Sequence record: MN709127.1
Reading direction: 5' to 3' (one strand)
Source of the DNA: Escherichia phage Ec_Makalu_002
DNA length: 64,000 nt
The stretch's first letter is position 1. Every line of letters begins with the position of its first letter. The position numbers were made by a program, and so were the translations under genes. The notes beneath the pieces were generated by a model that had not been told where the DNA came from, did not search any database, and saw only the letters and a program-made list of their open reading frames with translations. This document shows, in pieces, positions 43,051 to 58,638 of this stretch.

Positions 43051-43288
43051 AGTTTACCCACTCAACAAGATCTTTACCTAACTCAAAAGCCCATTCTCGG
43101 TCTTGCTTTACGTTTTGTAGGTATGGACTTTCCGACACTCGACGAAGTGATGTTGTCGTAACAAGAATGATCCCAGGAATGGTCGGATGCTCCTTACCAT
43201 ATACAATCGGACGGGAATCCCTTTCGACACCTTGTAAGAAGGTGTATCCTGAATCATTCAGCAACAAATACATTTTCGGTTCGTTCAT
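42950..43288 (-). CDS. hypothetical protein (possible 5' part of a frameshifted gene)
   Basis: 112-aa ORF with low-complexity charged tail in the overlap. Confidence 0.4.
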   Translation of the reverse strand: MNEPKMYLLLNDSGYTFLQGVERDSRPIVYGKEHPTIPGIILVTTTSLRRVSESPYLQNVKQDREWAFELGKDLVEWVNCEDKNQRNHEKKIARLEHRRKLDEIKNRILQSM

Positions 43289-43554
43289 TACAGCTTCCTC
43301 AACCAGTTATTAAAGCGAGCAAACAATGATGCTTTTCGTGCTTCTTCTTCGGCTTTGCACGCACGCAAACCACTGAAACACCATTCATAATCATCACTGA
43401 AACATGATTCAACAGGAACACCCGCATTTCGTAGTTCTCTGGTCGTTATCATAAATCCTTGACATAATGGGCGACCTTCAACAATGATAGGAAGTTTAAC
43501 TTTTTTCATGAAAGTATACCCAGCACGGTCAATAATTTCAATTTTAATTTTCAT
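43288..43554 (-). CDS. hypothetical protein, small paralog family
   Basis: AGYTFMKKVKLPIIVEG..TTRELRNAGV resembles 45907..46128 product. Confidence 0.45.
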   Translation of the reverse strand: MKIKIEIIDRAGYTFMKKVKLPIIVEGRPLCQGFMITTRELRNAGVPVESCFSDDYEWCFSGLRACKAEEEARKASLFARFNNWLRKL

Positions 43555-43799
43555 TTTACGTTATCTCCATAGATCTTTCCATCAATATCAATTTCACCAG
43601 CGCGAACATCTAGGATAAGATGCGGTAGGTGTATGTAGTTTTCCCACCCTACGCGCTTCATTTCTTCTACGGTAACGTAAGCCCACCCGTTCGCTGTAAT
43701 AAAGTCTACTTCAACCTTGAGAGGAAAGCAAGACTTTTCTATGTCTTCGAATCCGACAATATGTTTTGTTGTTGAATATGGAATATATCCGGTGATCAT
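43551..43799 (-). CDS. hypothetical protein
   Basis: 82-aa ORF. Confidence 0.45.
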   Translation of the reverse strand: MITGYIPYSTTKHIVGFEDIEKSCFPLKVEVDFITANGWAYVTVEEMKRVGWENYIHLPHLILDVRAGEIDIDGKIYGDNVK

Positions 43800-44230
43800 T
43801 TTGTGATCTCCTTATACTCAACACACCATAAGCGGGTAGCCCATGATAAACGCTCATAACGCTGGCAGAAATCGGACCATAGATATTGTGCACCGTTCGG
43901 CATAGTTGAAATATGCGTTTTCTCTCCAACTTTCACGAAAGAAGTGTTCGATTTTGTGATCTCGACCGGAGTATATCCGAAAGCGGGTTCCAAGCCAACA
44001 TCTGAACTAAATGCCAATTTAACAGAATTTGTTTTTCTAACCGCTGTCCGGTTTCCTTCTGGGTATAGCACAGCAGGTTTAGCGCCTAAGCGGATAAACT
44101 CACTATTTTTAATAAACAGAATATCATGATAACCGTCATATTCCGACACTTCCATAGTAACAGGAAAATCGACATGTTCTAAACCTGGTAGATCTCGCAT
44201 ATCATAAAATGTAGCAATCAACTTTTTCAT
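43796..44230 (-). CDS. hypothetical protein (C-terminal domain duplicated in next gene)
   Basis: EITKSNTSFVKVGEKTHISTM..YLWSDFCQRYERLSWA matches 44241..44459 product. Confidence 0.45.
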   Translation of the reverse strand: MKKLIATFYDMRDLPGLEHVDFPVTMEVSEYDGYHDILFIKNSEFIRLGAKPAVLYPEGNRTAVRKTNSVKLAFSSDVGLEPAFGYTPVEITKSNTSFVKVGEKTHISTMPNGAQYLWSDFCQRYERLSWATRLWCVEYKEITK

Positions 44231-44240
44231 CTTGTATTCC

Positions 44241-44459
44241 TCACTCTTCTGTAATTACTTCATATTCAATTTTCCACACATCAATCGCCCAGCTTAAAAG
44301 CTCATACGATTTACAGAAAGATGACCAAATATACTGTTTTCCGTGCATCGTTGTTATGTGTGTATGCTCGCCAACTTCAACGAAAGACATATTTGACTTT
44401 GTGATAACTATAGGAATACGACCGAAAGGAGGCGGTATTACTGATTCGTTGGTCTTCAT
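44241..44459 (-). CDS. hypothetical protein, paralog of 43796..44230 C-terminus
   Basis: start ATG 44459 with the same 17-nt RBS segment (attcctcactcttctgt) as the neighbour. Confidence 0.45.
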   Translation of the reverse strand: MKTNESVIPPPFGRIPIVITKSNMSFVEVGEHTHITTMHGKQYIWSSFCKSYELLSWAIDVWKIEYEVITEE

Positions 44460-44469
44460 TCTATATTCC

Positions 44470-44706
44470 TCACTCTTCTGTTTCATTTCTTTTATATGGT
44501 ACTATAACAGGATTAAGACAGCAAGCACCAATTACGTTATGAGCACCACAATTTAAGCATTTATAATCATGGAACTTGTTAAGGAATCGACCGAACTCAT
44601 AACCGACTAACGCCGCGTGCACTTGAGTCTCGATCTCATCCATATCAGCCAATGTTTTAACCTTCATAATATAATCCTCAAATGGTAGTTTTGCGAAGAT
44701 GGTCAT
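44470..44706 (-). CDS. hypothetical Cys-containing protein
   Basis: 78-aa ORF; CLNCGAHNVIGACC. Confidence 0.4.
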   Translation of the reverse strand: MTIFAKLPFEDYIMKVKTLADMDEIETQVHAALVGYEFGRFLNKFHDYKCLNCGAHNVIGACCLNPVIVPYKRNETEE

Positions 44707-44997: not shown

Positions 44998-45025
44998 ATT
45001 ATAGCACTATGATTTTCATTGTCAA
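44998..45025 (-). promoter_or_regulatory. sigma70 consensus promoter (TTGACA-N16-TATAAT)
   Basis: directly follows terminator. Confidence 0.55.
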
Positions 45026-45030
45026 CAACT

Positions 45031-45064
45031 AAAAACAAAAAAGGCTACCCCGAAGGATAGCCCA
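45031..45064 (-). terminator. rho-independent terminator after the Gly-rich gene
   Basis: minus strand GGGCTATCCTTCGGGGTAGCCTTTTTTGTTTTT. Confidence 0.65.
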
Positions 45065-45069
45065 TAAAA

Positions 45070-45849
45070 TTACACGCGAGCACCATAGATCGTGCCTACT
45101 TTATCCCAGCGAGGGGCATTGCCAGTAACAGCCTTACCAGCCGCCCCGCCATTATATTCCGATCCCTGTCCACGGATATTACATTTACCACCAGCACCAC
45201 CAGCATCACCACCGTTACCGCCATTATATACACCGTTGACAGACCCTTTACCTGGCGCGGAAATAGTACCAGCAGTAGCACCCCGTTCCATATTAGCAGA
45301 CCCGCCAGCAGCACCAAACGGACGACCACCGCCACCACCAAAGGTTAATTTCATTTGTGACATAGGAGACCAGTATCCGCCGCCACCGCCGCCACCGCCA
45401 CCGCAAATAGCGCCGTTATTTGTGATGCGTAAGCGTGTGCCTATACCGTTGTTAATTGCATTACCACCAGCACCACCAGCGGAGTTATTGCCACCATTAC
45501 CACCACGCCCCCAAACATGAACACCGGGGTTAATGATCAATGTTACATATTCGTTTGTTAACGAGCTAGGGAAGTCAAGACAAGGAACGCCAGTAGAATG
45601 GGAAACAATATTACCTGTGATAGTAATTACTACCGGAGTAGATCCTTGTGCTTTCATCCAGTTAATAAGAGTGTCTTTATTGTAAGAGTTACTAGCACCA
45701 ATGCTATAATGAATCTCTTTAGAGCGTCCGACCATCGCTGACATATACGCCGGACGGCCTAAGCGTACAGCTTGCATTGCGGCGCTCATCCACCGTTGAC
45801 CTGTTTCTGATACGGCAGATGAACCGACCCACCCAGAAGATATTGCCAT
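45070..45849 (-). CDS. glycine-rich adhesin-like protein (gp38-type receptor-recognition protein?)
   Basis: 259 aa; GWVGSSAVSETGQRWMS N-terminus then glycine-rich motifs (GRGGNGGNNSAGGAGGN, GGGGGGGGGYW, GGGGGRPFGAAGG) alternating with variable segments, as in T2-type gp38. Confidence 0.55.
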   Translation of the reverse strand: MAISSGWVGSSAVSETGQRWMSAAMQAVRLGRPAYMSAMVGRSKEIHYSIGASNSYNKDTLINWMKAQGSTPVVITITGNIVSHSTGVPCLDFPSSLTNEYVTLIINPGVHVWGRGGNGGNNSAGGAGGNAINNGIGTRLRITNNGAICGGGGGGGGGYWSPMSQMKLTFGGGGGRPFGAAGGSANMERGATAGTISAPGKGSVNGVYNGGNGGDAGGAGGKCNIRGQGSEYNGGAAGKAVTGNAPRWDKVGTIYGARV

Positions 45850-45863
45850 AAAATTTCCTCACA

Positions 45864-45886
45864 AGAAAAGCCCCAATTAAGGGGCA
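45864..45886 (-). terminator. hairpin GCCCC..GGGGC plus T-run upstream of the Gly-rich gene
   Basis: minus strand GCCCCTTAATTGGGGCTTTTCTT. Confidence 0.5.
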
Positions 45887-45906: not shown

Positions 45907-46128
45907 TTAGATGATCTCAGCTTCACCATTCAGGAAGAAAGACCAAGTTTTGTTTGGGTAACGACGCGCCCATGATTCGGCGGTTTTAACACCAGCTTCG
46001 AACAATTGACGGCTGGTTACTTTAGCCATACCATCTTCGATGGCAACGTTTTCAATAATCATCGGGTACTTAGCGCCACGCATGAAACCGAAGCCAGCGG
46101 AAGATTTGATAATTTTAACAGTTGCCAT
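45907..46128 (-). CDS. hypothetical protein, small paralog family
   Basis: AGFGFMRGAKYPMIIEN..TSRQLFEAGV resembles 43288..43554 product. Confidence 0.45.
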   Translation of the reverse strand: MATVKIIKSSAGFGFMRGAKYPMIIENVAIEDGMAKVTSRQLFEAGVKTAESWARRYPNKTWSFFLNGEAEII

Positions 46129-46169: not shown

Positions 46170-46198
46170 ATTATGCAATAACACCGGATCGCTGTCAA
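46170..46198 (-). promoter_or_regulatory. sigma70-like promoter (TTGACA-N17-CATAAT)
   Basis: CATCGAAAC box downstream. Confidence 0.5.
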
Positions 46199-46502: not shown

Positions 46503-46849
46503 GCCATACCCCTTAAAACACTAATAGCATAATCATGCTGGTTATTCATAATATCAATTGCATTGTGATAACGAGCTAAACCATCAAGGATAAATTCTTG
46601 TTTATCTTGTTTCAGCTTAGTATCACGCGCAGCCATAAGAGCATCGAGAACAGGTCCAAAGTGATTGTCCAATTCATCTTCGGTTGCAATGTTTCCTATT
46701 GCCTCGTCGATCCGTGATTCTAATGCTTGCTTTTCGTTGATCACTTGCTGGGTATATTCCAGAACATCAAGAATATCGCGGGTAACGTCGCCATGATAAG
46801 GTATTCCCGCATGAAGATGATCAATTAATCGCTGAATATCAATGTTCAA
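46499..46849 (-). CDS. hypothetical protein
   Basis: 116-aa ORF; ATGA overlap. Confidence 0.45.
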   Translation of the reverse strand: MNIDIQRLIDHLHAGIPYHGDVTRDILDVLEYTQQVINEKQALESRIDEAIGNIATEDELDNHFGPVLDALMAARDTKLKQDKQEFILDGLARYHNAIDIMNNQHDYAISVLRGMA

Positions 46850-58419: not shown

Positions 58420-58638
58420 TTATTTATATCGCTTTCTCTCGCGACGTTTTTGATCTTCTTCCTTGATAGAGTTAAATGCATCAAAAAGACACATGACACT
58501 AATAATAAACATAACCGTATTTTCTACGATATCCCACGGCTTCGCATCAGTACAGATCCCCCAAACGGTAAGAAATGCAAATAAGGCAGAAGAGATCACA
58601 AGCATGATACTTGCTAAGACATAAAAGGTCATCTTCAT
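58420..58638 (-). CDS. small membrane protein
   Basis: 72 aa; hydrophobic core, basic tail. Confidence 0.45.
   Translation of the reverse strand: MKMTFYVLASIMLVISSALFAFLTVWGICTDAKPWDIVENTVMFIISVMCLFDAFNSIKEEDQKRRERKRYK
58421..58428 (-). promoter_or_regulatory. T4-type late promoter core TATAAATA
   Basis: exact motif overlapping upstream stop, heading a 148-nt non-coding stretch. Confidence 0.4.

Follow-up and report, generated by a model that had tools for sequence, protein, structure and literature searches.

It is very probable that the open reading frame at 45070-45849 is the Krischvirus gene 38, present as the sole copy, and that its product is a long-tail-fibre adhesin with an S16/T2-like mechanism, the mode of expression and the receptor being those that we infer below from sequence. 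The window, by which we mean the whole stretch of 64,000 nucleotides of Escherichia phage Ec_Makalu_002 that was analysed, contains the gene as an intact reading frame, and its domains and the signals around it are collected in Table 1.

Table 1. Gene 38, its domains, and the neighbouring genes and signals in the window
Feature	Position	Strand	Remarks
Late promoter TATAAATA	48433..48440	-	Nearest canonical late promoter on the gene 38 strand; before rI, 2.6 kb upstream of gene 38
Sigma-70-type early promoter TTGACA-17-CATAAT	46170..46198	-	11/12 consensus; nearest promoter 5' of gene 38; annotated at the same place in GEC-3S
73-aa ORF	45907..46128	-	phrog_7345 (5e-34); first gene of a two-gene unit with gene 38; AGGAGAATCAAA leader
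Upstream hairpin GCCCC-TTAATT-GGGGC, then TTTTCTT	45870..45885	-	5 G-C pairs, -11.2 kcal/mol, z -2.9
Shine-Dalgarno GAGGA	45856..45860	-	6 nt 5' of the gene 38 ATG; read from the sequence; RBS annotated in Ec_Makalu_001
Gene 38, long-tail-fibre tip adhesin (gp38, T2/S16 type)	45070..45849	-	Intact ORF, ATG start, 259 aa and stop codon
N-terminal gp37-attachment domain, Krischvirus type, codons 1-45	45715..45849	-	Gp38_N match; identity to RB49
Glycine-rich receptor-binding domain, codons 113-259	45073..45513	-	Glycine-rich motifs alternating with hypervariable loops
Strong intrinsic terminator directly 3' of gene 38	45042..45063	-	9-pair stem, -14.7 kcal/mol, z -4.1, long T-run; annotated in Ec_Makalu_001 and GEC-3S
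Sigma-70 promoter TTGACA-16-TGnTATAAT	44998..45025	-	12/12 consensus, extended -10; starts the next early unit of small ORFs
AGGAGAATCAAA sites	2596, 9046, 32921, 38753, 42643, 44970, 46130, 47384, 57176, 57892, 58146, 59702, 60149	-	

Identity of the gene 38 product

The protein was tested for membership in the family of T2/S16-type gp38 tail-fibre adhesins (PF05268 together with PF21721). It matches Pfam GP38 along profile positions 1-218 of 218 (3.8e-72, 243 bits with a cut-off of 25) and Gp38_N along the whole profile with its residues 1-40 (3.9e-18, 65.6 bits, the cut-off again being 25). It also matches PHROG 2056, ‘tail fiber protein; host specificity’, with 2e-101, and these three matches exclude a chance ORF. 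The solved gp38 of Salmonella phage S16 (PDB 6F45_D) is aligned over residues 1-257 (E 2.6e-50), a second solved gp38, 9V85, also aligns, and the same gene is annotated as an adhesin in 99%-identical phages. The initial annotation had read the N-terminus and the polyglycine motifs with variable spacers as those of a T2-type gp38 adhesin and had proposed homology to the gp38 N-terminal attachment domain as a check. This homology is found, both domains are matched, and the reading holds.

The motif GWVGSSAVSETGQRWMS occupies residues 6-22. Residues 113-259 are 34% glycine, with the runs G9 (150-158) and G5 (171-175) and the further blocks GRGGNGG, GGAGG, GGNGGDAGGAGG and GGAAG, between which variable segments are placed. 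Alignment of seven adhesins (this gp38 and those of GEC-3S, RB49, slur04, T6, T2, and S16) yields 80 invariant columns, which include all glycine-rich blocks. W7, G9, S11, E15-T16-G17-Q18, and W20 are the same in all seven proteins and make up the N-terminal W-G-S-ETGQ-W signature. The invariant blocks of the C-terminal part are GRGG, G7 (G7-9), GGGGGRP, GNGG, and GGAAG, and the segments between them vary. The length of 259 aa compares with 247-265 aa in S16, RB49, JK38, T2, and T6.

S16 gp38, solved in complex with the gp37 tip (PDB 6F45), has the same two-domain plan, with 45% identity overall and with other variable loops. Identity is 98% to gp38 of GEC-3S and 85% to that of RB49, and Krischvirus gp38 is an established long-tail-fibre adhesin and host-range determinant (PMC9569957). 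Spontaneous host-range mutants of RB49 carry E230K, or E230K together with Y231S, in gp38 only (Golomidova 2022, PMC9569957); E230 of RB49 aligns with E231 here. In T6-like phages a swap of gp38 changes the receptor (bioRxiv 10.64898/2026.04.02.716166).

The entry in the RB49 GenBank record reads ‘38 ... similar to T2 and RB69 gp38 adhesin’. The labels of the gene in the records of RB49, JSE, GEC-3S, PHB13, JEP8, Cognac, Whisky, and KFS-EC are ‘distal long tail fiber assembly catalyst’, ‘tail assembly protein’ or ‘hypothetical protein’. Krischvirus labels of this kind, given after T4 gp38 or without any call, are misleading for an adhesin.

Displacement from the tail-fibre module

The 3-kb stretch around gene 38 has DNA identity of 99.3% to Ec_Makalu_001 (Krischvirus gec3s), 99.0% to Ec_Makalu_003, and 91-96% to GEC-3S, RB49, JSE, ECD7, and other Krischvirus. 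At least 80% of the stretch is covered in 43 phage records with unchanged gene context, and no presence/absence polymorphism of the locus is seen, the context being the same in all Krischvirus records matched. RB49, GEC-3S, JSE, phi1, Cognac49, Whisky49, and Brandy49 all carry gene 38 at this displaced locus, and the hairpin, terminator and promoter that flank it there are the same.

No tail-fibre genes are found near gene 38. The fibre module falls outside the window and was located in the 163.7-kb genome of Ec_Makalu_001, the 99.3%-identical relative, in which the coordinate at gene 38 minus 9 gives that of the window. The module lies at 144-155 kb in Ec_Makalu_001 and RB49, with the order 34-35-36-37, a 79-aa ORF, and the holin gene t. 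From the end of gene 37 to gene 38 it is 54.7 kb round the record end in both genomes, and about 105 kb in the opposite way. Thus the remoteness from the tail-fibre genes claimed initially is borne out, gene 37 being about 55 kb off in Ec_Makalu_001 and RB49. In the Tequatrovirus phages slur04, T6, T2, and JK38, unlike here, gene 38 directly follows gene 37. We note that the gene order 37-38, typical of the family, is absent here, and that adjacency to gene 37 is not a defining property of the protein. The displacement in RB49-like phages was noted by Trojet 2011 (PMC3157838) and appears for Krischvirus also in a 2026 preprint (bioRxiv 10.64898/2026.04.02.716166); it is a genus-wide Krischvirus trait, in the literature since at least 2011, and is nothing new.

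The word ‘orphan’, by which the gene had been described, is right for its position and wrong for its partner. The gp37 gene lies outside the window and was hence tested on the closest relative: gp37 of Ec_Makalu_001 carries Peptidase_S74 at residues 872-931 of 980 (1.3e-11). A self-cleaving chaperone domain at the C-terminus of gp37 is the arrangement of gp38-capped fibres (PMC9569957).

The slot between genes 37 and t is taken by the 79-aa ORF (Ec_Makalu_001 154132-154371; ORF251w/dc5 of RB49; phrog_402), which has neither similarity to gp38 nor a Pfam match. A remnant of gene 38 beside gene 37 was considered and rejected, as the ORF in the slot is unrelated to the adhesin. One local match of 19 residues (10/19 identical, pairwise E 0.001) joins the 79-aa ORF to T4 gp38 and may be due to chance.

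Two other readings of the gene are to be weighed here. If the product names in several GenBank records, among them RB49, JSE, and GEC-3S, were right, gene 38 would encode a non-virion tail-fibre assembly chaperone of the T4 type. T4 gp38, a chaperone for a gp37 with its own receptor-binding tip (PMC3157838; T4 RefSeq note), shares with the gene described here, however, only the gene number and the copied product name: there is no sequence similarity to the gene 38 product (BLASTP E 5.5), and the T4 RefSeq note terms T2-type gp38 ‘unrelated’. Matches to the adhesin family and to the solved S16 adhesin cover the full length of the protein, and the RB49 host-range mutations fall in the C-terminal domain (PMC9569957). 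We thus regard a T4-type chaperone as extremely improbable. Hardly more credit can be given to the view that the gene is a second, spare receptor-binding cassette, kept for alternative host ranges while a canonical gp38 adjoins gene 37. Its isolated place in a hyperplastic region speaks for this, as do the flanking promoter/terminator cassettes, a type of element for which a role in module shuffling has been proposed. However, when 50,697 phage records were searched by tblastn, every Krischvirus genome listed, including RB49, GEC-3S and the 99.3%-identical Ec_Makalu_001, showed exactly one gp38 place, and the ORF that follows gene 37 is the unrelated one of 79 aa. Hence, of the initial wording ‘relocated or spare’ the former stands and the latter falls: as there is one gp38 gene per Krischvirus genome listed, gene 38 is relocated and single-copy, not spare.

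Surroundings of gene 38

The gene is placed among small hypothetical ORFs in the nrdC-tk region, nrdC being about 5.5 kb away on one side and rI/tk at a distance of about 2.3-3.2 kb on the other. This location and terminators on both sides of the gene had been indicated by the initial annotation, and both agree with our analysis: the flanking elements are terminator-like hairpins, the upstream one weaker and the downstream one strong. The upstream hairpin, identical in GEC-3S and RB49, separates the 73-aa ORF from gene 38 and is predicted to act as a weak terminator or attenuator. Sequestration of the ribosome-binding site by this hairpin in the style of T4 lysozyme was rejected, as GAGGA is free in the centroid fold.

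The ribosome-binding site of gene 38 differs from that of the 73-aa ORF. The leader of the latter, the 12-mer AGGAGAATCAAA, comprises the ribosome-binding site and the spacer and has, with one mismatch allowed, 13 occurrences in the whole window, all of them on the minus strand, versus 0.5 expected. In three of these places (44970, 46130, and 47384) it leads the first ORF downstream of a sigma-70 promoter; thus it looks like a part of a repeated early promoter (PeSL) cassette. A 37-nt direct repeat that brackets the 73-aa ORF and gene 38 was tried as the boundary of a cassette and rejected, since the 13 occurrences make AGGAGAATCAAA a generic first-gene leader, not a locus-specific one.

Two pairs of paralogues are found near gene 38 on the minus strand. 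One consists of the phrog_7345 ORFs at 45907-46128 (73 aa) and 43288-43554 (88 aa), the other of the phrog_16117/phrog_10407 ORFs at 43796-44230 (144 aa) and 44241-44486 (81 aa), which have in common a C-terminal module of about 55 aa. Scans of the whole window for tRNA genes and Rfam families found nothing.

The concept of PeSL (promoter-early plus stem-loop) comes from RB49 and phi1 (Arbiol et al. 2010, PMC2839356), a paper in which gene 38 is not mentioned. Directly after gene 38, at 45063-44998, a stem-loop terminator, an AT-rich stretch and a consensus sigma-70 promoter follow each other as in a PeSL-type cassette, and a second such cassette is found at 47480-47413, with about 79% similarity to the first over 47480-47381. 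The region of gene 38 is in this respect a hyperplastic early region like those with PeSL in RB49 and phi1 (PMC2839356). Unlike a full PeSL flank (PMC2839356), however, the 5' side of the gene has a hairpin only, with no adjoining promoter. The nearest 5' promoter (46198-46170) is one ORF beyond gene 38 and has no G+C-rich stem-loop, whereas the 3' cassette is complete. The pair of the 73-aa ORF and gene 38 could be a PeSL-bounded module.

Expression of gene 38

A structural gene without a late promoter is unusual in T4-type phages. Exact TATAAATA sites number two in the 64-kb window (48433-48440 and 58421-58428, both on the minus strand) versus 5.4 expected by chance. The latter shares positions with the end of a membrane-like ORF of 72 aa (58420-58638), and an ORF of 61 aa follows about 280 nt downstream of it. 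Within 2.5 kb upstream of gene 38 there is no exact TATAAATA, and in the intergenic parts none even with one mismatch; the sole one-mismatch site on the gene 38 strand in this range, 46543-46550, is inside an ORF. The late-promoter prediction for RB49 (Nolan 2006) has in the region only Pl:48756, which is the same site as 48433-48440.

The best 8-mer upstream of gene 38, TCTAAGTA, is two positions off the late-promoter consensus. In RB49, (T/A/G)ATAAATA is the form of the late promoters ahead of structural genes, CTAAATA being found at genes 26 and 37, and the 15-mer upstream of gene 38, TCTAAGTAATATTAT, resembles TCTAAATAATATTAT upstream of gene 37. Across 50 kb of the late region of RB49, no late gene is preceded by the CTAAGTA core of TCTAAGTAATATTAT.

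The RB49 late genes 13, 14, 19, 20, 35, and 37 have a hairpin of the GGGGC...GCCCC type and a T-run directly before the ribosome-binding site, with no promoter between. The same layout of hairpin and then ribosome-binding site is seen at gene 38. Since it occurs inside the late operons of RB49, read-through of such hairpins seems normal in these phages. We suggest that gene 38 would be the second gene of a short unit, which runs from the early promoter at 46198-46170 through the 73-aa ORF and the weak hairpin to gene 38 and the strong terminator. Since no late promoter is recognisable for it, gene 38 is probably transcribed from upstream promoters by read-through of the hairpin. A search of the literature on Krischvirus transcriptomics found nothing relevant.

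Mosaic adhesin and proposed receptor

The identity to other adhesins changes along the protein. For residues 1-45 it is 96% to RB49, 67% to JK38 (= slur04), and 60% to T6; for residues 46-112 it is 96, 90, and 34%, respectively; and for residues 113-259 it is 76, 92, and 75%. Residues 1-112 taken together are 96% identical to RB49. In the receptor-binding half RB49 differs by one 5-residue and one 4-residue indel, located in the variable loops. The loops YWSPMSQMKLTF, NMERGATAGTISAPGKGSVNGVYN, and KCNIRGQGSEYN are built, indels included, like those of T6/JK38 and unlike those of RB49, and the loops YxSPxxQMxLTF and KCNIRGQGSEY are common to this protein, T6 and JK38 and absent from RB49. In general, the variable loops of the T6 and JK38/slur04 adhesins are nearly the same as here.

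With identity of 76% and indels in this half, the receptor probably differs from that of RB49, to which OmpA has been assigned (bioRxiv 10.64898/2026.04.02.716166). JK38 is Tsx-dependent, as determined by RB-TnSeq (bioRxiv 10.64898/2026.04.02.716166). In its variable loops this gp38 allele agrees with the Tsx-binding adhesins of T6 and JK38 and not with the OmpA-binding RB49 allele; for this reason we suggest, with moderate confidence, that its protein receptor would be the Tsx nucleoside channel. We note that a single loop substitution can switch the receptor (Q206L, from OmpF to OmpW; bioRxiv 10.64898/2026.04.02.716166), and that RB49-like gp38 can also use O antigens (PMC9569957).

The gp38 proteins of slur04 and JK38, which are identical, look chimeric: the first 45 residues or so are T2-like, whereas in the rest they have 90-92% identity to the adhesin of Krischvirus gec3s. 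Their genes, like that of T6, sit between 37 and t. The chimeric appearance suggests exchange of receptor-binding parts between the genera despite the different loci.

The question arises whether gene 38 was recently imported from Tequatrovirus as a mobile PeSL-flanked cassette and is not an old resident of the genus. Such an import would explain why the receptor-binding half is closer to JK38/slur04 (92%) than to RB49 (76%), and PeSL-type elements do flank the unit. However, position and flanks are kept across the genus, the N-terminal 112 residues are of the RB49 kind, and at the DNA level gene 38 is only 77% identical to that of slur04. GC3 of gene 38 (0.36) also fits the resident genome, with 0.35 in 12 neighbouring ORFs, and not the Tequatrovirus genes, with 0.25 in JK38 and 0.25-0.27 among T6, JK38, and slur04. 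We thus consider recent import unlikely. The data fit old residence of gene 38 together with exchange of the distal half. The exchange could equally have gone from Krischvirus to Tequatrovirus, because the JK38/slur04 adhesin looks like a T2-type N-terminus joined to a Krischvirus-like remainder.

Proposed mechanism and implications

By homology with S16 and T2, the following sequence of events may be proposed at the fibre tip. The C-terminal chaperone domain of gp37 would assist the folding of the trimer and then would cleave itself off. One gp38 would dock on the exposed tip of the fibre through its N-terminal 45-85 residues or so, and its C-terminal glycine-rich domain would form a polyglycine-II sandwich. 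The hypervariable loops would then bind the outer-membrane receptor reversibly, thus starting the infection and setting the host range. By this analogy, we infer that gp38 is located at the fibre tip of the virion and determines receptor and host range there.

Earlier work has already described the adhesin role, the displacement and the modular exchange of receptor-binding loops. More speculatively, the Krischvirus adhesin gene might be uncoupled from late transcription, either by means of the sigma-70 early promoter and the attenuating hairpin or with a non-canonical late signal (TCTAAGTAATATTAT), and its siting in a hyperplastic-region module with promoter and terminator boundaries may ease the exchange of adhesin alleles between genera. 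We put this forward as a tentative idea that is rather less likely to be right than wrong. If it is true, the Tsx-type half common to this phage and to Tequatrovirus JK38/slur04 would be an example of inter-genus allele exchange.

Last, gp38 is the main host-range determinant in most T4-type phages and an engineering target for therapeutic phages; therefore, annotation and receptor-prediction pipelines must find its gene. For Krischvirus this means that gp38 has to be searched for outside the tail-fibre module, which is a practical point and not a discovery.
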